Assembly: GCA_963826125.1 (NCBI GenBank)
Contig: CAWGVV010000002.1
Coordinates: 356,613-420,612 of the forward strand
DNA from: an uncultured delta proteobacterium
Lineage (GTDB): Bacteria > Desulfobacterota > Desulfarculia > JACQYL01 > CAWGVV01
DNA: 64,000 bases
Direction: 5' to 3'
The notes beneath the pieces were generated by a model, which had not been told where the DNA came from, did not search any database, and worked only from the letters and a program-made list of their open reading frames with translations. The first letter of the stretch is position 1. The number at the start of each line of letters is the position of its first letter. Both the position numbers and the translations under genes were made by a program. Below, piece after piece: positions 1,589 through 34,147 of the stretch.

Positions 1589-3169
1589 TTATTTTTCCCA
1601 ATGCATTTCATTTAAAGGCGACATCAGACCCCATATGGTCGTATTCACCTTGCGCAGTTTCTTGTCATAGGCAGTGTAGGCCGGGGTGATATCAACAAAA
1701 GCGATAGGCGCATCGTCAACGACAATCTTCTGAAACTCGGCGTATAAGGCCTTTCGTTTGGCCTGGTCGAGTTCCATACCGGCCTTTTCCAGAAGTTCGT
1801 CCACTTTTGGATTGGAGTATTGGGTGGTGTTCGAGAAGATAACGCCTTTCTTAATATTGCTGCTCAGATAGGTTCGATGGACCCCGATAACCGGATCGCC
1901 CCAGTTATAGACGGTATCCCAGGTCAACTGAAAATCCCAATTGGAAACGAGCTTGGCCCAGGAAGGAAAATCAGGGGATGACCGGATGACAACGTCGATT
2001 CCGATTTTCTTCAACTGAGGTTTCAGGTATTCGGCCAGGTTTTTCTGCTGTTCGAGGACGCCGGGAATATAGTCCACGGTTAAGGAAAATCGCATGCCGT
2101 CGCCTTTTTTGGGATACCCGGCCTCATCCAGCAAACTGTTCGCTTTGGCCAGGTTCAGATCATAGTGTTGGACATCGGCAGTATAAAAGGGACTGGCTGG
2201 ATCGATGGGACCGGTGGCCCGTTTGGAAAAGCCCAGAAGGAGGCTTTTCACGATGAAATCACGGTCGATGGCATAAGAAATCGCTTGACGGACCCGTTTG
2301 TCGTCCAGGGGCTTTTGTTTGACATTGAACTCCAGCCAGTTGATCGGACCTACGGCAGGAGCCGCAGTCTCCACCTTGATGAAGGGCAGCTTTTCATAGG
2401 GTTTGATCTCCTTTGCCTCGGTGACAAAAACGTCTATCTGGCCTTCATTGTTTTTCATGGCCGTAAGCCTGGTTACTGAATCGGGGATGATCTTTACGAT
2501 AAGCTTCTTTATGTGCGGCGCTCCCAGGAAAAATTTGTCGTAGGCCTCCAGGATGTAATATTCACCCGGCTTGTACTCCACGAATTTGAAAGGCCCGGAA
2601 CCTACCGGCGTCATGTTCATGGGATGGGTTTTTATATCCTGGCCGTCTCCGAAGACATGCTTGGGAATAATGGGACACAACGCCTGGGACATGGCCAGGA
2701 GAATGGCCGGATGGGGATGGGACAGATGGATCACCGCCGTGTGCGGATCCGGTGTATCGATCTTCTCCACTGGGGCGAACATCGTCTTGAAGGGATGATT
2801 ATTTTTTATCGTCATGATGGAGAAGGCCACGTCTTCGGAAGTAATGGGCTTTCCGTCATGAAATGTGGCGCCCTTCACCAGATTCAGGGTTACCGTCAAG
2901 CCATCCTCGGAAATCTTCCAGCTCTTGGCCAGGTAGGGATGGGGCTGCCATTTGTCATCGAACATGATGGGGCTGGCGAACAACTGAGCCGAAGGAAACA
3001 TGGTCGCGGCTCCGGATTGAACCGCACCGTTAAAATGCCGGGGGGCTTGATTGACGAGCGCCACTACCGTTGTCGGGTCTGGATCCGCAGCAAAAGCCAT
3101 TGTGGAAATGGACACGAAGGCAGTGATAATCATGACTCCCGCCAGGACCAATAATCCCAATTTTTTCAT
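1589..3169 (-). CDS. ABC transporter substrate-binding protein, family 5 (peptide/nickel type)
   Basis: The ORF has the length (~520 aa) and sequence character of a family-5 solute-binding protein, with a signal peptide (MKKLGLLVLAGVMIITAFVSISTMAFA). I placed the start at the internal Met at 3169, which is preceded by a GGGAGGTG ribosome-binding site. It is the first gene of an SBP-permease-permease operon. Confidence 0.8.
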   Translation of the reverse strand: MKKLGLLVLAGVMIITAFVSISTMAFAADPDPTTVVALVNQAPRHFNGAVQSGAATMFPSAQLFASPIMFDDKWQPHPYLAKSWKISEDGLTVTLNLVKGATFHDGKPITSEDVAFSIMTIKNNHPFKTMFAPVEKIDTPDPHTAVIHLSHPHPAILLAMSQALCPIIPKHVFGDGQDIKTHPMNMTPVGSGPFKFVEYKPGEYYILEAYDKFFLGAPHIKKLIVKIIPDSVTRLTAMKNNEGQIDVFVTEAKEIKPYEKLPFIKVETAAPAVGPINWLEFNVKQKPLDDKRVRQAISYAIDRDFIVKSLLLGFSKRATGPIDPASPFYTADVQHYDLNLAKANSLLDEAGYPKKGDGMRFSLTVDYIPGVLEQQKNLAEYLKPQLKKIGIDVVIRSSPDFPSWAKLVSNWDFQLTWDTVYNWGDPVIGVHRTYLSSNIKKGVIFSNTTQYSNPKVDELLEKAGMELDQAKRKALYAEFQKIVVDDAPIAFVDITPAYTAYDKKLRKVNTTIWGLMSPLNEMHWEK

Positions 3170-3251
3170 CTTCCGGCACCTCCCTTGGTCTTGAGTAATT
3201 GTTGTTTTAACGCTCATCACCTCGGACTGTTCGATAGAAGGGTGCAGACGG

Positions 3252-4862
3252 CTAGTGGATCAGGCCATAGACTTCCCGTCCCCCCATAACCGTGGCCAGC
3301 ACCCGGATATCCTTTATCTTTTCCGGAACACACGTGAGCGGATTATCCGACAGGACAATAAAATCCGCCAATTTGCCCTGTTCGATAGACCCTTTGAGAT
3401 GCTCCTCGAAACTGCACTTCGCCGCCGTAACCGTATAGGCCTTCAGGGCTTCCAAAACCGGAATCCGCTCCTCCGGGCCAAGGACTTTCCCTTGACGGGT
3501 CAGCCGATTCACCGCGGTGTGGATGGAAAAAATGGGGTCCAGCGGCGTTACCGGAAGGTCCGAGTGCAGCACGAACTCAAGGCCGGCGTTCAAGGAAGAA
3601 CCCAAGGGATCGATACGTCGCGCCCGCTGCGGGCCCAAAAAGGTGGATAGGTGACGGTCTCCCCAATAGTAGACGTGATTGACAAAATAGTTGGGAATCA
3701 CTCCCAGCGCCTTCATGCGCCTGATGTGATCGTTTGAAGCGGTCTGGCAGTGAATAATCATATGGCGGGAATCGCTACGCGGACATGATTTTTGTGCTTT
3801 CTCCATGGCCTGCAGAACGGACTCGATGGCCCGGTCTCCATTGGCGTGCACGGCCAATTGAAGGCCGGCGCGGTGATACGTGTCTACCAACCTGTCCAAA
3901 CCCTCTTGAGGAATAATAAGGTCGCCCCTGAACCCGGGTCGGTTATGGTAATCCTCCCCCAGGGCGGCGGTAAGGCCTTGAATGGAGCCGTCCTGAAAAA
4001 GCTTGACGCAGCCCAATTGCAAGGAATCGGAACCAAAACCTCTTCCCAGCCCCAATGCAATGAGCTTGTCGTAGTGGTCGTGCATTATGGTCAAATAAAC
4101 TCGTAAGTTCAGTTCCCCACCTTCATCCAGCTCGCGATAGGTCTGAAAAACTTCACGGGCATCCCCCGCATATCCTATGGCCGAGTCGTGGATACTGGTT
4201 ACCCCGCATTGATGGCAATACCGGACTGCTTCAGGGAATGCCCTTTTAAAATCAGAGAGGGTGGGGGTCGGAATATGTGAGGCGACCAGCTTCATGGCCG
4301 CCGGTTCAAGCAACAAGCCGGTGGGCGCGTCGCGCTCGTCCTTGTGGATTTTGCCGCCGGCGGGTTGGGGAGTTTCGGGTCCGATGCCGGCGATCTCGAG
4401 CGCTTTGGAATTGGCATAGGCAAGGTGGCCGGATATATGATGGACCAGGATCGGATGCTGTGAAGATACCTCGTCCAGGTCGGTCCGGGTCAGATGCCTT
4501 TTTTCGGCGATAAGGGTATCGTCATAACCCCATCCCTTTATCCATTCTCCAGGTTCGGCCTTTCCCACCTTTTCTCCGAGGTGGGCTTTCACATCCTCAA
4601 TCCTGTCATTGGCCTCCGGACGACAGTCTGCCGCCAGTAGAGTCATGGCGTACGAGGACAGGTGATTATGGGTCTCAATAAAACCTGGAGCAACGGTTTT
4701 CCCTTTCAGGTCGACGACTTCTGCCCCATCTTCAGCCCATCTGTTTATTTCGTCGCCGGAACCCACGGCCAGGAATCGGCCCTCGAAAACGACAAAGGCG
4801 GAGGCTTCCGGCATTGCCGGATTCATGGTCACTACTTTTCCATTCCGAAATACCTTCAGCAT
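3252..4862 (-). CDS. Metal-dependent amidohydrolase (amidohydrolase-3 / YtcJ-like)
   Basis: The 536-aa ORF carries an N-terminal HxH metal-binding motif (GFIETHNHL) and distal His/Asp motifs (VHANGD, HCQ, HSD) characteristic of the amidohydrolase superfamily. Confidence 0.75.
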   Translation of the reverse strand: MLKVFRNGKVVTMNPAMPEASAFVVFEGRFLAVGSGDEINRWAEDGAEVVDLKGKTVAPGFIETHNHLSSYAMTLLAADCRPEANDRIEDVKAHLGEKVGKAEPGEWIKGWGYDDTLIAEKRHLTRTDLDEVSSQHPILVHHISGHLAYANSKALEIAGIGPETPQPAGGKIHKDERDAPTGLLLEPAAMKLVASHIPTPTLSDFKRAFPEAVRYCHQCGVTSIHDSAIGYAGDAREVFQTYRELDEGGELNLRVYLTIMHDHYDKLIALGLGRGFGSDSLQLGCVKLFQDGSIQGLTAALGEDYHNRPGFRGDLIIPQEGLDRLVDTYHRAGLQLAVHANGDRAIESVLQAMEKAQKSCPRSDSRHMIIHCQTASNDHIRRMKALGVIPNYFVNHVYYWGDRHLSTFLGPQRARRIDPLGSSLNAGLEFVLHSDLPVTPLDPIFSIHTAVNRLTRQGKVLGPEERIPVLEALKAYTVTAAKCSFEEHLKGSIEQGKLADFIVLSDNPLTCVPEKIKDIRVLATVMGGREVYGLIH

Positions 4863-5231
4863 GGGTATCTTCTTTTGATTGATAGATGTGGATGGATTTT
4901 ATTGCGTCGAGTCTTTAGTCGTTTAGATGTCTAACCTCTAGTTGAACGTTTCTTGCTTGTCAAGGGAAAAGTCTTCCTGAAAAATTTGGCGGCTTTGGAG
5001 CGAGGGTCCGGGCCTGCGTCCGGAAAGAAGTACGAGGCGGATGAAAACAACCACTGACGGCCGAACCACCGCCCAAGCAAGGCCGATTCAGGACTTCTGC
5101 GTAAATTAAGTTCACCGCTAAAAAAAGGGGTAGGGGGGGTATTGCTCTCTTTTCAATAAATTTTCCTTCTCTGGTTGACTCATTCGGTTTGAATGACCGA
5201 TGGCAGCCGGAGGCTCCGTTTTCCTATTGAT

Positions 5232-6112: not shown

Positions 6113-7642
6113 TCACCCCGCCTTCCTCTCCAGACTCCGGTACTGGATCGCTTCGGCGATATGCGTCGGCGTGATCCGGTCGCCGGCGTCCAGGTCGGCG
6201 ATGGTGCGAGCGATTTTTAAAATACGGTGGTAGGCGCGGGCCGACAATCCCATGGATTCCATGGCCCGTTCCAGCAGGGTGAGGGACGTGTTGTCCAGTT
6301 TGCAGAAGCGGGTGATGTGGCGGTTTTTCATCTGGGCGTTACAGTAGATTCTGTCGTTGCCGAGGCGTTCGCGCTGCACGGCCCGTGCGCGTTCCACCCG
6401 TTCCTTGACCACGGCCGAAGACTCCCCAACCGTGTCGATGGAGAGGTCCCGGTAGTCCACGGCCGGCACTTCGATCTGGATGTCCATCCTGTCCAATAAA
6501 GGCCCGGAAATGCGGGAGCGGTACTGCGCCACCAAACGCGGACTGCACTGGCATTCGTGTTTGCGGTCTCCCAGGTACCCGCAGGGGCAGGGATTCATGG
6601 CGGCCACCAGCATGAACCGCGCGGGATAGGTGATGGACACCACGGCGCGTGAAATGGTCACATGCCCGTCTTCCAGGGGCTGGCGCAGGACCTCCAGCAC
6701 GTTTTTGCGGAATTCGGGAAGTTCGTCCAGAAACAGCACGCCGTTGTGGGCCATGCTCACTTCGCCCGGACGCGGCACCTGCCCGCCCCCGATAAGCCCC
6801 GCGTCGGAAATGGTGTGGTGGGGAGCGCGGAACGGGCGCACGGTGACGAGCCCACGGTCCTTGGGCATCATGCCCACCACGGAATAGATCTTGGAGGTTT
6901 CGAGGGATTCGTCGAAAGTGAGGTCCGGCAGGATGGTGGGCACCCGGCGGGAAAGCATGGTTTTGCCGGACCCCGGGGGGCCGACGAGAAGAACATTATG
7001 CCCGCCCGCGGCCGCCACTTCCAATGCGCGTTTGGCCAGTTCCTGGCCCTTCACTTCGCTGAAGTCCACCATGTCCCGGTCGCCGTCGGAAAACGTGCCG
7101 AAGGGATCGGCGGATACCGGTTCCAGCGGCGCGCTGCCGTTCAGGAACTGCACCGTTCGGCTGAGCGAATCCACGCCGTACACTTCGATCCCCGACACCA
7201 CGGCGGCTTCGGCCGCGTTTTCACGGGGCACGACGATCCCGCGCAGCTTGTTGTCTCGCGCGTGGATGGCCATGGAGAGCACGCCACGGACCGGCTTCAC
7301 TCGTGCGTCGAGGGAGAGTTCCCCCACGATGAGGTAACGGGTGAGCGGCTCCTTCTTCACCGCTCCCTCCGCGGCCAGAATGGCCAGGGCGATAGGCAGA
7401 TCGAAGGCCGCGCCTTCCTTACGCACGTCCGCCGGTGCCAGATTCACCGTGATGCGGTCGTCGGGATAGCTGTAGCCGGAATTCTTGATGGCCGCTTTCA
7501 CGCGGTCCTTGGATTCGCGCACGGCTCCTTCGGGCAACCCCACCGTGGCGAAATAGGGCAGCCCACCCGCGATGTCCAGTTCAACTTCCACCGTGTAGGC
7601 GTCCACGCCCAGCACCGCACTGCTTAATACCTTGGCCAGCAT
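6113..7642 (-). CDS. comM: YifB/ComM family Mg-chelatase-like AAA+ ATPase
   Basis: An N-terminal Lon-protease-like domain (MLAKVLSSAVLGVDAYTVEVE...) is followed by an AAA+ module with Walker A (GPPGSGKT) and an Mg-chelatase C-terminal domain. I placed the start at the internal Met matching canonical ComM N-termini. Confidence 0.85.
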   Translation of the reverse strand: MLAKVLSSAVLGVDAYTVEVELDIAGGLPYFATVGLPEGAVRESKDRVKAAIKNSGYSYPDDRITVNLAPADVRKEGAAFDLPIALAILAAEGAVKKEPLTRYLIVGELSLDARVKPVRGVLSMAIHARDNKLRGIVVPRENAAEAAVVSGIEVYGVDSLSRTVQFLNGSAPLEPVSADPFGTFSDGDRDMVDFSEVKGQELAKRALEVAAAGGHNVLLVGPPGSGKTMLSRRVPTILPDLTFDESLETSKIYSVVGMMPKDRGLVTVRPFRAPHHTISDAGLIGGGQVPRPGEVSMAHNGVLFLDELPEFRKNVLEVLRQPLEDGHVTISRAVVSITYPARFMLVAAMNPCPCGYLGDRKHECQCSPRLVAQYRSRISGPLLDRMDIQIEVPAVDYRDLSIDTVGESSAVVKERVERARAVQRERLGNDRIYCNAQMKNRHITRFCKLDNTSLTLLERAMESMGLSARAYHRILKIARTIADLDAGDRITPTHIAEAIQYRSLERKAG

Positions 7643-7881: not shown

Positions 7882-8121
7882 ATGCAAACAGTCGGAGCCT
7901 ACGAGGCAAAAACGCATCTCGCCCAACTCCTGGCGCGTGTAGCCAAAGGTGAAAAAATCACTATCACCAGACACGGCGTTCCTGTGGCGGTCCTGCAACC
8001 CGTCGATTCTTCTGAAAAGACGCCCGTGCGTGACGTCATCGATCAGATAAAGCAGTTCCGCAAGGGGCATCGACTTGAAGGGCTTTCCGTTCGTGAAATG
8101 ATCGAGGAAGGAAGGCGCTGA
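7882..8121 (+). CDS. vapB: Type II antitoxin, Phd/YefM family (VapB-like)
   Basis: The 79-aa product (MQTVGAYEAKTHLAQLLARVAKGEKITITRHGVPVAVLQPV...) is a classic Phd/YefM N-terminus. A GGAGG ribosome-binding site sits 8 nt upstream of the ATG at 7882. Its stop overlaps the start of the PIN gene in ATGA fashion. Confidence 0.8.
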   Translation: MQTVGAYEAKTHLAQLLARVAKGEKITITRHGVPVAVLQPVDSSEKTPVRDVIDQIKQFRKGHRLEGLSVREMIEEGRR

Positions 8122-8347
8122 TGTCTGACCGGTTCGTCGTAGACACGTCGGTGGTCATGGCTTGGTGCTTCGAAGACGAGCAGGACGGTTATGCGGAGGC
8201 TGTCATCGAGAGCCTCGAAAATCGGGAAGCCCTTGTCCCCCGCCATTTGTGGCAATGTCCTGATCATAGCGGGAAGAAGAAAGTCTCTCTGCCAGCTGAC
8301 AGGTCCATTTTCTTGCACTCTTGAACGGTTTCGCTCACCACGGTAGA
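8121..8347 (+). pseudogene. vapC: VapC (PIN-domain toxin), frameshifted and 3'-truncated
   Basis: The N-terminus MSDRFVVDTSVVMAWCFEDEQDGYAEAVIESLENREALVP matches PIN/VapC toxins, including the catalytic Asp in VDTS. After ...HLW the reading frame breaks near 8245. The +1 frame continues with VapC-like ...GNVLIIAGRRKSL... and then stops near 8347. Only about half of a ~135-aa PIN domain is present, and AT-rich foreign DNA begins right after it. Confidence 0.55.
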
Positions 8348-8504
8348 ACTGGAATTGTAGAGCGCCAATAGAACTGATTGACAGCTTTTCCTGACTACAT
8401 GTAGAATGCACAGATAAGCCGTAAGAGCACAAACCGTTTCCCTTCGTGATAATAAATCTCGTTCTCTTTAAGTTCGCGCATCATAAGTAGTGAGAATGTT
8501 CGAA

Positions 8505-9938
8505 CTACATTGCACTTCGGAATAAAGGTACCCAAGTAACAGTCCTATTTCTTCGATTCGGTCGACCAGAAACCTTTACAGGTCCTGCAGCCCAGAAAAG
8601 AGGGAGCGAAGCTTTCGGTACCGAGTGAGCAAATGCCAATGATAAACCGAGGCTTCGCATTCCTAACGCACACTCTCGCACCTTGGCATTTGGCCAATCG
8701 CCCCAACTTGCGGTATCTTTCTTCATTTTCAGGTAATTGTAGAAGAGTTGGTACCCGACTTTCTTACAGAACTGAACCGCCTTTTCCCGTTCTTTTTCAC
8801 ACGTACCCCATACTTTAGGGTTGGAGAATGCAGGTAACCTCATGTATTTTTCTGGACAAGCGATGACATCAGTTTCGCCTTCCCTACGCCAAAAATTCTT
8901 ACTAGCGAGAGATTTCTCCCCTTCGAAGGTGAGCACCCTTATTTCTTCGCCCGTATTAGAAACTTCTATGCAGTCTGAGAGACCTTGACTGTCCAAATAT
9001 TCCCGCAACACCGTGGCACCAAACTCAGAATGAACAGCAAATCTGAACTGGATGTTCTTGCCAAGAATGGAGGATGAATCACTAAGAGCGGGTATTTTTT
9101 GATTTCTTCCGGACGGGCACTTATTCAGAAGTGAGTTCAGAAGGCTTCGTGATTCAGTTGCAGAGAGGAGGCAGTCCTCAACGTAAAGAACATTTTGAGT
9201 ATTATTGTCTTCCAAACATGACCGAAGATCACTCAGAGTAGGCAACGGTTGCAACGGTTCGCTGGCTCTGAGTTCTGAGAGCTTCTTCTGAACCAAGTTC
9301 TGAATCACCCCACCGCTCTTGCCAAATTCATGAGAATTGAAGCAGATATACTGGAACCCGGAAATTTCATCTTTTTTGAGCGAAAGAGCTTCAGCAAGTC
9401 TTGGCTCTGTCCAAAAATCTAGCGACCTTAAAAGATTCTCACCAATCCACCTGTAATTGCCGAGATTTTCAAATTGCTGTATCCACTCCTTTAGGGAACC
9501 ATAAGAAATGTTACCATGGCTATATTTACTTAGAGTAGCCTCAATGCTACTAAGCCAATCTAATCTGAACTCTCCTAGAGCCTCCTTTATCCTTTCCTTC
9601 AAGAAAGCAAAATCGCTAGTACAATATTCCAATTGCCAGTTCTCGCCTCTACGCTCAGAATAAGGTATATCTTGCTGTCGGCACACAAAAATTCGAAAGT
9701 TAATGCCTTGATGTTTGGAAGTTAAGCCTTGCCTTATTGCTGTCTTGGAAAGGAGATTGTTATCACGAAGGAAATGGTTTGGAGTTTCAAGTAATATAAA
9801 GTGCTCGTCTTGATCCCATGCTGGCTTGGCATATTTATCTAGCAAATCTCGAAATTTTCGAGATTCCTTGAATGGTGTGATAATTAATATTCCCCCCCGA
9901 CGCATATTGGTATCTTCGTCAGCGACGCAGCAAAGCAT
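8505..9938 (-). CDS. Hypothetical protein (477-aa ORF), distal gene of the islet operon; no recognisable domain
   Basis: Long ORF in AT-rich DNA. Its start at 9938 overlaps the stop of the upstream ORF at 9919-9921 by 20 nt, suggesting translational coupling, although an alternative start MRRGG... lies at 9905. It has no Walker A motif and no obvious nuclease or NTase motifs. The C-terminal ~60 codons run into higher-GC DNA and may be read-through. Confidence 0.55.
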   Translation of the reverse strand: MLCCVADEDTNMRRGGILIITPFKESRKFRDLLDKYAKPAWDQDEHFILLETPNHFLRDNNLLSKTAIRQGLTSKHQGINFRIFVCRQQDIPYSERRGENWQLEYCTSDFAFLKERIKEALGEFRLDWLSSIEATLSKYSHGNISYGSLKEWIQQFENLGNYRWIGENLLRSLDFWTEPRLAEALSLKKDEISGFQYICFNSHEFGKSGGVIQNLVQKKLSELRASEPLQPLPTLSDLRSCLEDNNTQNVLYVEDCLLSATESRSLLNSLLNKCPSGRNQKIPALSDSSSILGKNIQFRFAVHSEFGATVLREYLDSQGLSDCIEVSNTGEEIRVLTFEGEKSLASKNFWRREGETDVIACPEKYMRLPAFSNPKVWGTCEKEREKAVQFCKKVGYQLFYNYLKMKKDTASWGDWPNAKVRECALGMRSLGLSLAFAHSVPKASLPLFWAAGPVKVSGRPNRRNRTVTWVPLFRSAM

Positions 9939-10797
9939 CCAACATAATCCCTAGAGGAAGCCATAGTTGGCGAAGTTCTGCTTCGCTCATGGTATCAACG
10001 CAGGCGCGGACGATTTCTCGGATGCCGGTAGGCATCGGCAAAAGGTGAGTACTGCCAGCAACTCTTTCGGGAGATAATGTTTCTTCCCTTAGTAGCTTCT
10101 TTCGCCTAAAGCCCCTCACATAAGAAGCAAACCCTTCAATCTCATCTTCATCCAATCCCAGAGATTTCAGCCTCTCTTCGAGGAACTTATTTAACATGAT
10201 CATACGCAGTGAAAGCAGGCGAGCATGGGCGGTTTTCCCTCCACGACTTCCAACTTCTTTAGAAAAAGGCAACCAGAAATTGTTTCCTTTCAGTTCAAAT
10301 TCTTCGGCGTTTTGAGGGAACTCGCTCTGTATAAAAAGAGAGGCAATTTTTCGATACTCATCTTCAGTAACCTTCTGTACCTCACAATATCCTTCTGGAA
10401 TTTCCTCCCCCTCTGATAGCACAACCAATTTTTTGTTATCCGGGGAAAAAAACAATCTCTCCCGCAACATCGGATTGCTAAACGCCCTCCAGGGGTTTTT
10501 TCTTTCGCTTTCTTTCTCTCCCGCCCCTTTAGAGACGCCAGCGGGAATGTCCCCAAGCCTTTTTCTATGTGTGTAGACGTTATCCATTCCGGATTTTCCC
10601 GTCGATATTACATTAGTGCATCTCGCTTCGATAAGGCCCCGTATTCCTCCAAACTTTTCTTTGACATCTAAATCCCTTATCTGGTCACTAAAAAATTCCC
10701 CAAGCTCAGTTCCTAAGACTTGGGGGGCAGGGTGCTTCAGGCAAAAATTTTCTATGTCTGTTACTATTCGCCCAATATTTTCATCATAACTGTCCAT
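9919..10797 (-). CDS. Hypothetical protein (~293 aa), proximal gene of the islet operon; no recognisable domain
   Basis: ORF in AT-rich DNA. The first in-frame ATG I can verify is at 10797 (MDSYDENIGRIV...), while the ORF track extends it to 10809. It is charged and helical (many E/K/R) and contains an R-x5-H stretch (RGGKTAH) whose significance is unknown. Confidence 0.55.
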   Translation of the reverse strand: MDSYDENIGRIVTDIENFCLKHPAPQVLGTELGEFFSDQIRDLDVKEKFGGIRGLIEARCTNVISTGKSGMDNVYTHRKRLGDIPAGVSKGAGEKESERKNPWRAFSNPMLRERLFFSPDNKKLVVLSEGEEIPEGYCEVQKVTEDEYRKIASLFIQSEFPQNAEEFELKGNNFWLPFSKEVGSRGGKTAHARLLSLRMIMLNKFLEERLKSLGLDEDEIEGFASYVRGFRRKKLLREETLSPERVAGSTHLLPMPTGIREIVRACVDTMSEAELRQLWLPLGIMLDALLRR

Positions 10798-10823
10798 CAC
10801 TTTCCCCACTTTTACAAAATAAA

Positions 10824-10848
10824 AAACCCACCAATTCAGTGGGTTTTA
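10824..10848. terminator. Bidirectional stem-loop (aaaaccca / tgggtttt arms) flanked by A/T runs
   Basis: An 8-bp perfect stem with a 9-nt loop. On the minus strand it is followed by TTATTTTGT, and on the plus strand it is followed by an A-run. It sits only ~15-25 nt upstream of the islet operon start. Confidence 0.45.
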
Positions 10849-11371
10849 TAAAAAAATACCGACTTTAGCTACATTATGATAAATTACTAAAATAAAATCA
10901 CCGACAAGAACAATTTTTCGTTGTATCATTGCCGTAGCCCCACGCGGAGTCCTGACGAAGGGCTCGCGATGCGAGTCATCCTTTTTTTGGACAACCCCCT
11001 AGAACTCATGCTCTAGGCGCTCCGGGAACATAAATTCCCCATCGCCAAATGTAAAATAACACCCCGACCACTCTTCGTCAAGCATTTTTGATATTGTCAA
11101 ATTTTTAGGTACAATCAAGTCCTAGAACTTAAGAAGCCGTCGATCCACGCATGCCTAAAAGATTACCTTAAGCTTGACGTGTCGTCCACGTGAATTCCTT
11201 TCGTGATGCTTTGAGCGGCTCACGATCGCCAGGTCACGGCCGACTCCTGGATATGTCAAACTTTTCAGCCTCCCCGACGAAGCCGGGGGAACACCCCTTA
11301 CGTTAGCCGCTAAGTAATACATCGACCCAAAGCGCGCTCGGTAAGTTCTTCCAGAAATCAAGGGTTATCAT

Positions 11372-13051
11372 CTACACCCTCTCCGGCACGGAAAACGGCA
11401 GAAACACGTCCACGCGCTTTCCGCCCAGTTGGCCCTGTTTCATGTCGATACGGCCGCCGTGCCAAGCCACGATTTTCCGGGCCGTGGGCAATCCGAGCCC
11501 GGCGCCGAAAGTGCGGGAGGTGAGGATGGGATCGGTGAGCACCGGCAGGACCGAATCGTCAAACGGGGCTCCGTTGTCTTCTATGGACACGGAAACTTCG
11601 TCCCGGGAGCGGTGCGTCTGGATGGTGAGGACCAAGCGGCCGTCGGTATCGTTTATGGAATGGACGGCATTGCCGATGAACTGAGCCAGCACCCGCTTCA
11701 TGCCCGTGGTATCGAGGTAGATGTCGGGAACGTCGTCGGGGTCGTACTGTTTCACCACGGAGACGTTTTTCTCCTTGATGGGCTGGCGGAATTCTTCGAG
11801 CGCCTCCTCGGCGAGCAGCGAAAGGTTCATGGCGTGGAAGTCCGGCTGGTAGTGCCGGCTGAAGTCGCTCAGTTCATGCAGCACGTGATCGATGCGGGAG
11901 GCTTCCTGCAGAATCATGGAGATGTATTCGCTCTTGACCGCTCCGGTTTTGGACAGCCGGTGGACGAACCCGCCCAGGCTGAGCAGCGGATTGCGGATTT
12001 CGTGCGCCACCGCCTGCAGGGCCGACTCGATGGCTTTGTCCCGCGCCTGGGCAATCTGTTCGTAGGAGCAGGAATCCCCCGAGCCGAACTGTGACTCGGC
12101 GCGGTCCAGGAACATTTGGATCTGCCCGGCCATGTGAAAATTGAGCTTCTGCAACGCCTGATTGGCCCGTTCCATGACGGCCAGCAGATCTTTTTCCTTA
12201 TCGGACTCCAGTTCCATGGCCGATGCCGTCTGTTCCATCCGCATGATGGCGTCGATGAGGATGTCGTTTATGGCGTGTGGAGTAACGTGGTAGAGCTTGT
12301 AGCCGTTCTTGTGCAGGGCGTAGAGGCTGTTTCCCTCGGTGAACAGGGTTTCGGACCCCAACCGGGCCAGTTCGCACAGGCGCGCCAAGGGCGACGCCTC
12401 ATCGTGAAAGGCCTTGGTGCCGAAAAACGACTGTACTTCGATGAGCCGTGCGGGAAACCGCCATTTGGTGAGAATTATCCGGCCCGCTTCCCGGTGGTCG
12501 ATGGCCAGCGCGTTTCTTTCCCACTGGAGGAGCTGTTCGGTGGGGGGCCGGCCCCGCGGATAGCTTCCGCGTTCCTCGGGAGAAAGTGCGGTGTAGAGCA
12601 TCAGTTGGCCGATTTCCAGGATGAGGGCGGCCACGAAGGCTTCCTCCGCCGGGATTTCGCCGATTTTCAACGCAAGTTCGTGGGCGATGAGCGCCCGATA
12701 GAGTGATATCTTCCAGAAGCCGTCATAGTCCATGCCCCCCTGCACTCCCAGGGGGAAGGTGTCGCGGAGCGACAATCCAAGCGCAATGCTCCTCACCCGC
12801 TCTATCCCCAGAAGGACCACCGCCCTGGACAGAGTGGACACTTTGGTGCGCTGGGCGTAGAAGACGCTGTTGCACAGTTTCAGCACGCGGGTGGTGAGGG
12901 AAGGGTCCTGGCCGATGAGATCGGAGATGTCCCTGACCGTGCAGGATTCATCGGAGGCCGTTTCGATGAGCCGGACGGTCAAAGGAGAAAGCGAAGGCAG
13001 AGCTTCGCCTTCCTCGATACGCTTGAGTATTTCGACCCGTCTCCCCGGCAT
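11372..13051 (-). CDS. Sensor histidine kinase with N-terminal HDOD domain
   Basis: An N-terminal HDOD-like region (...DISDLIGQDPSLTTRVLKLCNSVFY...) is followed by a HisKA H-box (AHEIRNPLLSLGGF) and a HATPase_c domain with a G-box (GAGLGL). It lies 25 bp downstream of alaS on the same strand. Confidence 0.8.
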   Translation of the reverse strand: MPGRRVEILKRIEEGEALPSLSPLTVRLIETASDESCTVRDISDLIGQDPSLTTRVLKLCNSVFYAQRTKVSTLSRAVVLLGIERVRSIALGLSLRDTFPLGVQGGMDYDGFWKISLYRALIAHELALKIGEIPAEEAFVAALILEIGQLMLYTALSPEERGSYPRGRPPTEQLLQWERNALAIDHREAGRIILTKWRFPARLIEVQSFFGTKAFHDEASPLARLCELARLGSETLFTEGNSLYALHKNGYKLYHVTPHAINDILIDAIMRMEQTASAMELESDKEKDLLAVMERANQALQKLNFHMAGQIQMFLDRAESQFGSGDSCSYEQIAQARDKAIESALQAVAHEIRNPLLSLGGFVHRLSKTGAVKSEYISMILQEASRIDHVLHELSDFSRHYQPDFHAMNLSLLAEEALEEFRQPIKEKNVSVVKQYDPDDVPDIYLDTTGMKRVLAQFIGNAVHSINDTDGRLVLTIQTHRSRDEVSVSIEDNGAPFDDSVLPVLTDPILTSRTFGAGLGLPTARKIVAWHGGRIDMKQGQLGGKRVDVFLPFSVPERV

Positions 13052-31170: not shown

Positions 31171-32124
31171 TCACCAGACCGACTTCCTGGTCGATCGGGT
31201 GAGAGAGATGAATGCTTCCTCCAGCGTCGGCACCACTTCGGTGAATTCCCGGATCAACCAGCCGTTGTCGCGAATCGCGGCCGATATGCGGGAGAGGACG
31301 TCCTTGTTTTCGAAACAGGTGATTTCGAAGCGCACGCAGCCGTCCCCGCCCTGAGCGTAGGAGCGTTCCACCGCGTCCACCCCGTCGATCGAACGGAGCC
31401 CCTTTTCCACCTGATCCGCATCGCCCTTCACCACGATTACGTAGCGGGTGTCTCCGTAGGCGGTGGCGGCCATTTCGGCCAGGGTTCCGTCGAAGATGAT
31501 TTTCCCCTCGTTGATGACCACGGTACGGTCGCTGAGAGCGGATATCTCCTGCAGGATATGTGTGCTGATGACGATGGTCTTGTCCCGGGCCAGACTCACG
31601 ATCAAGTCCCGGATGCCGATGATCTGCAGCGGATCGAGGCCCGAAGTGGGTTCGTCCAGAATAAGGATTTCCGGGTCGTGTATCAGGGCCTGGGCAATGC
31701 CCACTCTCTGGCGGTATCCCTTTGAAAGTTCATGAATCTGCTTGCGCAGCATTTTCCTCAGTCCGCACGCCTCGACCACGAAATCCATCCGTCTTCGGGC
31801 AATGTCACGGTGAAGCTGCCGCCCGGAGGCCACGAAGCGAAGATAATCGATTACTTCCATGTCCGTATAGAGGGGGACCGCCTCAGGCAGATATCCCAGA
31901 CGCCGGCGCACTTCGAGAGGCTGTTCCCTCACATCGAACCCGCCCACTACGGCGGTGCCCGAGGTGGGCGCCATCTGCGTGGTGAGGATGTTCATGATGG
32001 TGGATTTGCCGGCGCCGTTGGGCCCCAGAAGGCCCAGAATGGTACCGCTGCCGACTTCGAAGGACGCCCGGTCCACGGCCAGCGTGGGGCCGTAGAGCAT
32101 GGTAAGTTCCTTTACCTGAATCAT
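31171..32124 (-). CDS. ABC transporter ATP-binding protein (GldA-like, ABC-2 type)
   Basis: Walker A (GPNGAGKST), ABC signature (LSKGYRQR), Walker B (ILILDEP) and an H-loop are all present. I placed the start at MIQVKELTMLYG. Confidence 0.85.
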   Translation of the reverse strand: MIQVKELTMLYGPTLAVDRASFEVGSGTILGLLGPNGAGKSTIMNILTTQMAPTSGTAVVGGFDVREQPLEVRRRLGYLPEAVPLYTDMEVIDYLRFVASGRQLHRDIARRRMDFVVEACGLRKMLRKQIHELSKGYRQRVGIAQALIHDPEILILDEPTSGLDPLQIIGIRDLIVSLARDKTIVISTHILQEISALSDRTVVINEGKIIFDGTLAEMAATAYGDTRYVIVVKGDADQVEKGLRSIDGVDAVERSYAQGGDGCVRFEITCFENKDVLSRISAAIRDNGWLIREFTEVVPTLEEAFISLTRSTRKSVW

Positions 32125-32261
32125 AACCCCCCCAAAGGGTCGTACCGGTTCCCCCTGCCGCGGTCGCAACGTGTCGACGGCGGCCGTCCGGGCGGAAATG
32201 GCCGAGTTTTCCTAATCCTTTGCAACCGTTAGGCGTATTAAAAGAAATGGCGGCCGATGTC

Positions 32262-33400
32262 AACCAGTTCCAACATGAACTATCTGCTGGAAATTTAGGA
32301 TTATAGAGTATACTATTCTTAAAATTTGCTATACGTAAATAGCCACCCGTAACAGGATAGTTAAAATGAACGACGAAATAAATAATTTCCTATCTCAGTT
32401 TCGGATGTTTTTGATAAAAGCTAATGACAGTGACCTATATGTCTATGGTGGCTACAACCCACTTGGATTACTAATGGTTAAAGAAAATCACATCGAAAGT
32501 AGAACTGTCTTCAAGCAATCCGAGTCAATATTGCGAATAGGTTGGTCAAAAATAAGCAAATTCGCTCAAAATAAAATTAAGTTTCGAGGTTGTACTATAA
32601 ATAAATATGTTTTTATTGGAAAAATATTTCGCGAAAATGCAATATTGCATGTTAAACTGACCAACAACATTACTCTTGTAGAACTAGACATTAAAAGTAA
32701 GCGTGTTTCTGTCATAGGATCAGGCAACATGAATGAGCGGTTGTTAGATTTTCTTTTAAAATTCTCCTATAATATGAGATTCACTTGCTCTTATGATTTT
32801 GAAGGAATTTTAAAACAACAAACATCAAGTGGAGGACATCAAAAGATAGATACAGTTAGAAGAAAAGTTGATCCTACGGTATTTATCTCATATTCAATAG
32901 ATTCTGAAGAACATCAAAAATGGGTGGTTAAGCTAGCTGCAGATCTTATTAGGCGAGGTGTAAGGGTGACTATCGACGAATGGGATCTCCGCTATTATAA
33001 CAACAACTTACACTACTTTATGGAGAGAGGAATCGCAAATTCAGACTTTGTCTTGATGGTTTGTACACCGGAATATGCTAAAAAGGCCGATAATAGAACA
33101 GGTGGTGTTGGTATCGAGTGTTCGATTATAACGTCGGAAATTTATAATCCAGAAAAATCAGGTAAATACTTGCCCATAGTTAAGGGGTATTCTTCTGGTA
33201 TCAACGAGTGCTTGCCTTTATTTTTAAAAACAAAAAAAGTGTTAGATTTCAATAACTACAGTAAATATGACAATAACATAGACGCCCTCTTGAGGGAAAT
33301 ATTAGACATTCCTAAATATGAGAGGCCCACATTGGGTAGATTGGTGCCACCTAGGTCGATTCGAGTTTAAACCGAAACAGCAAGCTAACTCCAGAGAATT
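32262..33400. other. AT-rich single-gene islet (putative horizontal insertion)
   Basis: Composition is markedly AT-rich between the ABC ATPase start and the SDR stop. It contains only the TIR-domain ORF. I did not recognise an integrase, a tRNA or clear direct repeats. Confidence 0.55.
32366..33370 (+). CDS. TIR-domain protein: unknown ~165-aa N-terminal domain plus C-terminal TIR domain
   Basis: The C-terminal half (PTVFISYSIDSEEHQKWVVKLAADLIRRGVRVTIDEWDLRYYNNNLHYFMERGIANSDFVLMVCTPEYAKKADNRTGGVGIECSIITSEIY) has the TIR hallmarks. These are a betaA strand F-I-S-Y-S, a W-containing alphaA, and a conserved Glu in GxGIECS. An AGGATAG ribosome-binding site precedes the ATG. Confidence 0.75.
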   Translation: MNDEINNFLSQFRMFLIKANDSDLYVYGGYNPLGLLMVKENHIESRTVFKQSESILRIGWSKISKFAQNKIKFRGCTINKYVFIGKIFRENAILHVKLTNNITLVELDIKSKRVSVIGSGNMNERLLDFLLKFSYNMRFTCSYDFEGILKQQTSSGGHQKIDTVRRKVDPTVFISYSIDSEEHQKWVVKLAADLIRRGVRVTIDEWDLRYYNNNLHYFMERGIANSDFVLMVCTPEYAKKADNRTGGVGIECSIITSEIYNPEKSGKYLPIVKGYSSGINECLPLFLKTKKVLDFNNYSKYDNNIDALLREILDIPKYERPTLGRLVPPRSIRV

Positions 33401-33403
33401 GAT

Positions 33404-34147
33404 TCACATCCCCCAACCACCGCTCACTTCCACGGCCGCGCCCGTCATGAAGGACGCCTCGTCCGAAGCCAGGAAGGCGATGACGTTGGCGATTTCCGCC
33501 GGGGAGGCCGACCTGCCGAGCGGCGTGTCGGCGATGATGGCCCGCTTGTACTCCTCTTTCATGACGTTCAGGATGGTCGGGGTGTCGGTGAGGCCGGGCA
33601 GCACGACGTTCACGCGTACGCCGTGAGGCCCGAGTTCGCGGGCCATGCTCTTGGTGAGGCCGACGAGCCCCGCCTTGGCCGTGCAATAGGCAAGTTCGCC
33701 CTTGGCTCCCGCCTTGCCGTAGATGGAAGAGACGTTGACGATGCTGCCGGCCTTCCGCTCCTTCATCATACCGGCAGCGAGCCGCGACAGGTTGAGGCAC
33801 CCTTTGAGATGCACGTTCATGACCTGGTCCCACTCGTCGTTCGTGATTCTGGACAGGGTGCCCGGCCGGTCGAACCCCGCGTTGTTCACCAGAACGTCGA
33901 CATGGGGAAAGGTCGCCAGGACGCGGGCAAAGCCTTCCTCCACCGACCCTTGGTCGGCCACGTCGGCGGTGACCGCAAGAGACTTTCGTCCCAGGCTCGC
34001 CACCGCCTCGGCGGTCAGCACCGCCGTTTCCCCGTTCCGGTCCAGCACCGCCACGTCAGCTCCCTCTTGCGCGAACTTGACGGCCGCGGCCCGACCGATC
34101 CCCTGCCCCGCTCCGGTGATGAGAGCGACCTTGCCCTCCAGCCTCAC
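33404..34147 (-). CDS. SDR-family oxidoreductase (3-oxoacyl-ACP reductase-like)
   Basis: It has the TGAGQGIG Rossmann motif, NNAG, and a YxxxK catalytic pair (YCTAK). A probable GTG start (VRLEGKVALITG) was chosen over the long GC-rich N-terminal extension of the track ORF. Confidence 0.8.
   Translation of the reverse strand: MRLEGKVALITGAGQGIGRAAAVKFAQEGADVAVLDRNGETAVLTAEAVASLGRKSLAVTADVADQGSVEEGFARVLATFPHVDVLVNNAGFDRPGTLSRITNDEWDQVMNVHLKGCLNLSRLAAGMMKERKAGSIVNVSSIYGKAGAKGELAYCTAKAGLVGLTKSMARELGPHGVRVNVVLPGLTDTPTILNVMKEEYKRAIIADTPLGRSASPAEIANVIAFLASDEASFMTGAAVEVSGGWGM

Follow-up and report, generated by a model that had tools for sequence, protein, structure and literature searches.

What function can be carried by a pair of genes that stands, in DNA of low GC content, beside a broken toxin-antitoxin (TA) locus? 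The question is raised by a stretch of 64,000 nucleotides (nt) of contig CAWGVV010000002.1, from an uncultured delta proteobacterium (assembly GCA_963826125.1), hereafter called the window, in which an islet at about 8,350-11,200 with a GC content of 43.6% holds two tightly linked genes on the minus strand, here named A and B, and no other gene:

9919 to 10797, minus strand: gene A, of an unannotated family; 292 amino acids (aa) from the ATG, or 296 aa if the open frame is followed up to the GTG at 10809
8505 to 9938, minus strand: gene B, of the PRTase-CE family; 477 aa, or 466 aa from the ATG at 9905

The original prediction, drawn from the letters alone, had seen two co-directional open reading frames (ORFs) in AT-rich DNA, a compact, horizontally acquired and coupled pair of proteins without any family, lodged at a TA locus, and had proposed that they form an undescribed defence or abortive-infection system. 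Much of this picture stands. Both ORFs lie on the minus strand with the expected lengths, and their composition is atypical, since the window has a median GC content of 57% in 1-kb windows (5th percentile 47%) and the GC content at third codon positions (GC3) is 0.43 in gene A and 0.42 in gene B, against about 0.80 in the flanking comM-like, kinase and alaS genes (0.79-0.82). By its composition, the islet is a foreign, horizontally acquired piece of DNA of 2.9 kb. A role in defence by abortive infection is still the best-supported reading, by analogy with characterised systems, and we lean towards seeing the islet as a tightly repressed TA-like module of that kind, in which B would be a toxic effector that binds phosphoribosyl pyrophosphate (PRPP), A its regulator or antitoxin-like partner, and the leader upstream of A a device that limits the synthesis of both.

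That neither protein matches a family is no longer tenable for B. Its residues 150-474 align with positions 2-252 of the 253 positions of the Pfam model PF24390 (PRTase-CE), scoring 52.7 bits where the cut-off is 27 (E 7e-14), and the same domain is precomputed in 8/8 homologues. The protein consists of an N-terminal alpha/beta domain (residues 14-123), which is an additional three-layer domain without an informative match, a helical linker, a core with the fold of a divergent type I phosphoribosyltransferase (PRTase), and a C-terminal HSVPK motif that belongs to the family-specific HSVPK...PLFW signature seen in the alignment of the eight homologues. Both loops that characterise active PRTases can be recognised. 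A G-K-S loop, FGKSGG (205-210), stands upstream in the place of the pyrophosphate (PPi) loop, and the PRPP loop YVEDCLLSATE (252-262; VEDGLxSGTE in the family) is formed by a hydrophobic strand ending in two invariant acidic residues and by a phosphate-gripping loop; G206 and K207 in the former, and E254, D255 and E262 in the latter, are invariant in the eight homologues, which are 29-59% identical to B. By these sequence features, B belongs to the PRTase-CE family as a divergent phosphoribosyltransferase of type I that has kept both loops. The searches against NCBIfam, PHROGs and PADLOC yielded nothing further for B than weak matches to PRTases of type III-A retrons, namely to the PADLOC model PRTase_III-A (E 2.3e-6, 24.8 bits, residues 366-473 only) and to a second model (E 6e-4).

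The letters CE stand for conflict effector, and PRTase-CE proteins have been predicted computationally to be nucleotide-targeting immune effectors, as related in PMC12871103, which cites Nicastro et al. 2023. A nucleotide- or PRPP-degrading activity and an immune role can likewise be predicted for B, by analogy with Retron-Eco11 and ShosT.

Gene A confirms the other half of the claim, as its product is matched by no model of Pfam, PADLOC 2023, NCBIfam or PHROGs. It is by no means an orphan: when 1.84 billion representatives were searched with a profile of the family, 715 clusters matched at E<=1e-3, and 439 at E<=1e-10; almost all have proteins of 280-320 aa, and most come from soil Acidobacteriota. 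The AlphaFold2 (AF2) model of A (pLDDT 80) begins with a winged helix (about residues 1-80) that resembles LOTUS/OST-HTH domains, and the Pfam OST-HTH model is reached by 1/60 family members, with E 0.003. The winged helix is followed by a PWxAFSNP motif with the invariant W103, behind which lie a small beta/alpha region and then a long helical hairpin; the conserved C-terminal helix bears an LPLG motif. Judging from the model, the N-terminus of A is likely a LOTUS-like nucleic-acid-binding module.

The two genes form a conserved unit, which bears out the original prediction on the point that it is a coupled pair. In all of the 24 distinct loci with enough downstream DNA, A is followed directly by B (24/24: the window, L001, L003, L006, L008, L010, L012, L014-L017, L019-L025, L027-L029, L033, L034 and L038), and in four further loci without B the sequence ends after A. 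The two genes overlap by up to 23 nt or are separated by up to about 35 nt. Within the window, the predicted 20-nt overlap holds if B starts at ATG 9938, which lies within the conserved 'LDA' codons of A here and in L001; it is replaced by a gap of 11 nt after the stop codon of A if B starts at ATG 9905 (M12), at the equivalent of which most homologues start, and residues 1-12 of B are disordered in its AF2 model. With either start the genes overlap or nearly abut, so that an operon with translational coupling fits both. The module is found in Acidobacteriota (Terriglobia, Bryobacteraceae, Acidobacteriaceae), in metagenome-assembled genomes of Alpha- and Betaproteobacteria and in one IMG/VR contig. 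Its distribution is patchy and single-copy, and its GC content is 5-10 percentage points below that of the surroundings in three of the four other loci compared, and about equal in L008.

The view that the pair is unlike anything known is not supported, given that B belongs to a defined family and that PRTase-like effectors have been validated in type III-A retrons, ShosTA, PsyrTA and NADR. Retron-Eco11 (type III-A3) combines a structured nucleic acid with a reverse transcriptase (RT) and with an effector that is PRTase-like and bears a winged-helix lobe, and its activation by phage helicases results in PRPP depletion and abortive infection (PMC12746101). The toxicity of ShosT requires PRPP binding, disturbs purine metabolism and is countered by the DNA-binding ShosA (PMC11961720, PMC12961424), and PRTases likewise serve defence in PsyrT and the 'NADR' system. 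With the PRTase-CE family, defined computationally by Nicastro, Burroughs, Iyer and Aravind (NAR 2023), our module shares an effector that matches the model along its entire length and exceeds the curated cut-off, the divergent type I PRTase fold with its PRPP and PPi loops, and the layout as a small mobile operon with a non-catalytic partner; it differs in that the partner A has no model in the four protein collections named above and in that the leader lies outside Rfam 15. With ShosTA and PsyrTA, in which a PRPP-binding toxin and a nucleic-acid-binding partner are associated with defence, it has in common the TA-like arrangement of two genes, the mobility and, by its sequence, the PRTase-fold protein. 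However, the PADLOC models of ShosTA and PsyrTA do not match A or B at E<=1, the fold of A matches winged helices rather than DprA, the partner gene comes first, and a RecQ-type helicase domain is lacking.

The spacer upstream of gene A holds elements that were absent from the original prediction:

11053 to 11081, minus strand: sigma-70-like promoter TTGACG-17-TATTTT with a TG extended -10 element (promoter scan, 9/12 matches with TG)
10848 to 11046, minus strand: predicted structured leader RNA, inside the low-GC islet and about 234 nt long including the terminator
10813 to 10847, minus strand: intrinsic terminator found by a terminator scan, with an 11-bp stem (10847..10823) AAAACCCAC-TGAATT-GGTGGGTTTT followed by TTATTTTG

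The leader of the window folds with a minimum free energy (MFE) of -81.5 kcal/mol (z -3.9 against 200 dinucleotide shuffles), and the terminator hairpin is present in both its MFE and centroid folds. The terminator stands 25 nt before gene A, with the end of its T-tract about 15 nt before the ATG. A like arrangement recurs across the loci compared, as a non-coding stretch of 270-760 nt precedes A in every locus and ends in a hairpin just 5' of the start codon; equivalent hairpins stand before gene A in L001, in L034 and in all loci of the main clade of relatives, and the window promoter takes the same position as the promoter conserved in that clade. No Rfam 15 family comes near its threshold in the window leader. 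For the window, an RNA component would follow from this architecture, in which promoter, stable fold and terminator occupy the same place as in the relatives.

Some sub-threshold matches deserve mention here. The Rfam Trp_leader model matches the terminator-proximal ends of the leaders of the window (10818-10909, minus strand) and of L002 (2758-2836) with 21 and 33.4 bits, respectively, against a gathering score of 41, and the PyrR binding-site model matches the main-clade RNA with 22 bits against a gathering score of 54; both are probably artefacts of a hairpin followed by a U-tract. Compared with the PyrR, Trp and Phe leader models, our leaders give matches that are far below threshold and terminator-driven. 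A leader peptide was rejected as an explanation, since the indels in the loops are not multiples of three and the Trp and Phe leader matches are of that sub-threshold, terminator-driven kind.

The main-clade leader is a strongly conserved RNA, in which a conserved promoter CTTGCA-17-TGTATACT, a 163-nt core and a C7/G7-T7 terminator are followed by AAGGAT and the ATG of gene A. The core is present in 22 distinct loci (nhmmer, E 1e-17 to 1e-43; in L022 the leader lies at 1330-1549), covariance models also recover divergent copies in the betaproteobacterial L017 (E 4e-10) and in L010 (E 2e-8), and all of the covariance-model matches are on the strand of A and immediately upstream of it. The RNA contains five covarying helices and invariant junctions such as CACCAGAAGCGGG, CCCCGCUGCGCAAGG and AAAUCCUUUAG. 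In the alignment fitted to the model, 96% of the cells are paired and 24 of the 42 pairs show compensatory changes, a level that 0/500 shuffles reach, and slid controls are 34-52% paired; an independent run of RNAalifold gave 51 pairs, 14 of them compensatory, and these figures rest on no more than 20 related sequences and, for one alignment of the two, on a fit to the model. As no Rfam 15 family comes near its threshold in it either, the main-clade leader is a candidate for a new RNA family of about 200 nt.

A conserved single-stranded segment of this RNA, CCCUUGGGCUGUUAAAUCCUUUAG, is complementary to the initiation region of A, AAAGGAU-GA-GCCCAA-UGGA. It pairs with the ribosome-binding site (RBS), spacer and start codon in 18/18 loci, at -13.7 to -22.8 kcal/mol and with a mean z of -3.1 against composition-matched shuffles of the RBS region, and in L019 and L028 the changes in the leader are matched by compensating changes in the RBS region. 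Since the 5' part of the segment doubles as the 3' strand of helix P4, the two pairings compete, as they do in translational riboswitches, with which the main-clade RNA shares a sequestered RBS. An expression platform can thus be recognised as a terminator in the window, and as a terminator together with a leader-RBS duplex in the main clade, where the A-B pair is therefore held down twice. The repression may be relieved by a small-molecule ligand, by A binding to its own leader, or the terminated RNA may also act as a free non-coding RNA (ncRNA). An antiterminator pairing between P2 and the terminator, seen in L022, was rejected as it is not conserved in L012, as judged by eye.

The leader RNA is the least expected part of the module, and as a conserved RNA it is seen in the relatives and not in the window. 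Taken with the two proteins, it leads us to propose a self-contained module in three parts, which would be a promoter of its own with a leader of about 230 nt ending in a terminator, then gene A, then gene B. Once unleashed, B would drain PRPP or nucleotide precursors, and growth and phage replication would stop, as in abortive infection. A, encoded just upstream of B and probably translationally coupled to it, could be a regulator, a sensor or an antitoxin-like partner that interacts with B and neutralises it; its winged helix may bind nucleic acid, be it the leader RNA of the module or an RNA or DNA signal derived from a phage, and A would keep B inactive until that signal comes. The leader would keep this putatively toxic pair almost silent, as most transcripts would end at the terminator, and in the main clade the RBS and start codon of A would be masked by the conserved leader segment in those that are read through.

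A riboswitch-like leader could also belong to an operon for nucleotide salvage or signalling, in which the RNA senses a base, PRPP or an alarmone and turns on a PRTase for the synthesis or recycling of a nucleotide, with A as an accessory regulator. PRTase genes under RNA control have precedents in PyrR, itself of PRTase fold, and in the purine riboswitch of xpt. The main-clade RNA has the look of a riboswitch with its multi-helix core, invariant junctions, terminator and an RBS sequestration that overlaps P4; B has the PRPP and PPi loops of active PRTases, and most of the neighbouring genes are housekeeping genes. We nevertheless find a salvage operon distinctly unlikely, given the foreign composition of the module and its patchy, single-copy distribution, the fact that no other salvage or transport genes travel with the pair, a leader that matches no known Rfam riboswitch, and a predicted fold of A that is of a nucleic-acid-binding type and not a metabolic one.

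The same RNA could instead work in trans. The terminated leader would then be a stand-alone ncRNA bound by A, in a ribonucleoprotein that resembles a retron without its RT, and the complex of RNA, A and B would hold B inactive until the RNA is remodelled or degraded by phage enzymes (helicases, nucleases or RNA-modifying enzymes). Made from a conserved promoter of its own and ended by a strong terminator, the RNA would be in excess over the A-B mRNA, as in type III TA systems (ToxIN-like), with which the module shares an RNA element with its own promoter and an intrinsic terminator before the protein genes, either setting a high RNA:protein ratio or gating read-through. It differs from them, however, in that there are no tandem repeats in the RNA, none being found in the window leader, and no endoribonuclease toxin, as B does not have an RNase fold. 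The likeness to type III-A retrons comprises a PRTase-like effector, a winged-helix module, a dedicated structured ncRNA just upstream and a weak sequence link in the C-terminal part of B, which weakly matches the PRTase model of these retrons; PRPP depletion would be the expected outcome in both. Retrons III-A pair their PRTase effector with a winged-helix module that touches structured nucleic acid, and they answer to phage helicases; LOTUS domains are associated with RNA, one LOTUS protein being a defence against RNA phages. The module differs from these retrons in the absence of an RT in or beside the islet, and hence of multicopy single-stranded DNA (msDNA), in a winged helix that is a separate protein encoded upstream rather than a downstream protein or a C-terminal fusion, and in an RNA that ends in a terminator and, in the main clade, masks an RBS. 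Against a ribonucleoprotein of this kind, the covariation-backed pairing of leader and RBS points to a role in cis, with which a second role in trans would still be compatible; RNA binding by A is a prediction from its modelled fold, the conservation of the RNA does not extend to the window's own clade, and L005 has a leader and B without A. We consider such a ribonucleoprotein, which would be a variant of the abortive-infection reading and a more novel one, about as unlikely as the salvage operon.

A broader form of the idea, to which we give somewhat more credence although it still seems unlikely, is that of a new class of RNA-gated immune system, in which a structured RNA of about 200 nt and a LOTUS-like RNA-binding protein, the RNA serving as a riboswitch for a ligand related to infection or as an RT-less, retron-like scaffold, would silence a PRPP-consuming PRTase until phage attack, the window leader being a second, unrecognised version of that RNA. 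If true, this would be the first defence operon known to rely for its control or assembly on a dedicated conserved RNA structure of this kind.

Returning to the abortive-infection module that we favour, several observations weigh against it, the first of them in the leader of the window. The main-clade covariance models R1 and R2 find nothing in it even with the filters off, and under the same conditions they give no significant match to L001/L002, L034, L038 and L005 (best L034, E 0.3). No block is common to the leader of the window and those of L001, L034 and L038 (blastn), and the pairing of the window leader with the RBS of A is not better than that of shuffles (RNAduplex, p about 0.26), the same being true of L001. 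In L034 a 10-bp pairing of the leader with the start codon is found (p about 0.003). The closest relative of B, with 60% identity, is known only from contigs that start inside B and so have no upstream DNA.

The proteins themselves raise two further points. The family profiles of A and B found no convincing relative among all PDB sequences (best E 0.41 and 0.027; whether ShosT and ShosA are present in that copy of the PDB was left unchecked), and the PRPP loop of B reads SATE where the consensus is SGTE, with C in place of G after ED. The latter point could suggest that the islet stems from an old insertion and is now decaying and without function, like vapC next to it, and to the loop that is off consensus at two glycines could be added the pseudogene nature of vapC and the lack of a mobility gene and of clear repeat ends. 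Yet the closest relative has the same two loop changes, which makes them a clade trait. Moreover, neither ORF is truncated, both can be aligned over their entire length with homologues that are 24-60% identical, all of the family-invariant residues are present, and promoter, terminator and gene spacing are intact. We find it hardly credible that the islet is dead.

The genomic context is the other difficulty. Across 20 loci the surroundings vary and the neighbouring genes are mostly housekeeping genes, not defence islands, so that the defence-island footprint which the original prediction had read into the islet is not borne out. Defence and TA genes are scattered among the neighbours (TIR-NB-ARC-TPR, NACHT-FGE, HerA, the S subunit of a type I restriction-modification system, SoFic, RelE, ParE and DUF433/PIN, and in the window the vapBC remnant). 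Such a pattern fits a small mobile module and not a classic defence island. It could be expected of a selfish addiction module of TA type without an immune role, in which B would be a PRTase toxin and A its antitoxin, and loss of the module would kill the cell. The molecular evidence for a toxic effector with a coupled partner would be the same as for abortive infection, the islet is solitary and found in varied housekeeping contexts, addiction would also explain its position next to a TA locus, the vapBC remnant, and its expression appears tightly repressed by the terminator and RBS masking. However, all of the PRTase-effector TA-like systems tested to date (ShosTA, PsyrTA, retron III-A, NADR) protect against phage, and some of our loci adjoin STAND/TIR, HerA or restriction-modification genes. 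We regard a purely selfish module as unlikely, although it should be said that the selfish and immune readings are not mutually exclusive.

Two last points weigh against the module that we favour. Only one relative was found among 2.9 million viral contigs, a relative of B, with none of A by pattern scan, and in L005 a gene B follows its leader with no gene A.

The two loci concerned show some features of their own. L038 (IMGVR_UViG_2654588105_000003), the only contig of the viral collection with the module, carries at 2972-4963 an A-like gene (25% identity over residues 103-287) and then a PRTase-CE gene that is 78% identical to the homologue P0008, and a perfect 11-bp hairpin without a clear T-tract stands ahead of the likely start of its gene A. 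In L005 (678-1302), the B homologue P0006, 32% identical to B, has ahead of it a promoter close to consensus (TTGACA-17-TATAAT), then about 200 nt of leader and a terminator hairpin, and further upstream GGGAAAA repeats and their inverse flank an ORF of 47 codons. In L001, the pair adjoins alaS as it does in the window, but order and orientation differ; the spacer before the pair holds short tandem repeats, of which GTGAAAAAAA occurs about four times before the putative promoter (6780-6850), and GGAATCCAGTTCTC twice inside the leader (6880-6920).

As to what is new in the module, the effector family and abortive infection by PRTases are known already, and the module is not categorically new in that sense. 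Family A, its invariant pairing with PRTase-CE and the structured leader with an RBS-masking segment appear to be undescribed in the databases searched. PRTase-fold effectors that starve phage of PRPP have only lately been recognised as an arm of bacterial immunity, and what silences and triggers them is understood only in part. The module would be a minimal, RT-free version, with one effector and one partner from a widespread unannotated family, joined in most loci by the well-conserved structured RNA. If the leader senses a ligand or is bound by the LOTUS-like A, it would link RNA regulation directly to an immune effector, and add a new RNA family. Even a conservative reading gives a name to one 'hypothetical' protein, a partner that can be tested and a candidate regulatory RNA for Rfam.

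On both sides of the islet (flanked by vapB/vapC, a comM-like gene, a histidine kinase gene and alaS), the features nearest to its edges are the following:

7882 to 8121, plus strand: vapB-like antitoxin gene (Phd/YefM family), intact, outside the islet and given for context; Pfam PF02604 E 7.6e-13, GC3 0.55
8121 to 8370, plus strand: remnant of a vapC (PIN) pseudogene, from sub-threshold Pfam hits and a three-frame translation read by eye
8438 to 8450: left copy of a 13-nt direct repeat, TTCC(C/T)TTCGTGAT, at the left GC transition; possible islet boundary
11195 to 11207: right copy of the 13-nt direct repeat, 12/13 identical to the left copy and 2757 nt from it; possible boundary
11372 to 13051, same strand as the A-B pair: HDOD-HisKA-HATPase histidine kinase gene, upstream of the pair

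The original prediction was essentially right on the TA locus, in that a decayed vapBC adjoins the islet, with vapB intact and vapC frame-shifted and without its C-terminal half at the islet edge. The first 44 codons of vapC are in frame, the frame changes near 8250 to the +1 frame (GNVLIIAGRRKSL...), which extends to 8346, and perhaps a third frame leads to about 8370; PIN-like sequence is gone by about 8350-8370, where the GC content begins to fall. The Pfam PIN_3 and PIN matches cover profile positions 1-37 only and are below the cut-off (E 0.008), so that the first 35-45 PIN residues remain and the antitoxin no longer has an intact PIN toxin beside it, as a type II VapBC system would. An exact copy of the 79-aa vapB product is on record with the same neighbours. 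A relative with an intact vapBC was not found, as the look-up of exact proteins led only to the identical metagenome contig L011, and a tblastn search of plasmids with the N-terminus of VapC gave nothing. On the other side, the histidine kinase gene had been described as convergent with the pair, which was mistaken: it is co-directional, and 574 nt of spacer (11371 down to the ATG at 10797) separate its 3' end from the 5' end of gene A.

The GC content drops within 8300-8400 and has recovered to 59% at 11200, and the two copies of the 13-nt repeat coincide with both edges of the islet, with a third, weaker copy at 8085-8097. About four such 13-nt pairs are expected by chance in 3.8 kb, so that their length is at chance level, and it is their position that suggests they could be insertion ends. 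There is no tRNA, integrase or transposase gene at the islet. The stretch of normal GC content between the stop codon of the kinase gene and the islet edge is filled by a TTG-started ORF of 68 codons (11155-11361, minus strand), which is probably spurious.

Elsewhere in the window, a second islet of lower GC content (38-41% in 1-kb windows) lies at 32000-33500. It contains an ORF on the plus strand (32366..33370; 34.7% GC, GC3 0.33), between ABC-transporter genes and a short-chain dehydrogenase/reductase (SDR) gene. The product of 334 aa has a C-terminal TIR_2/SEFIR domain (Pfam E 5e-17 and 2e-14), behind an N-terminal part of 170 aa without assignment, and the gene is probably another acquired defence-type gene.

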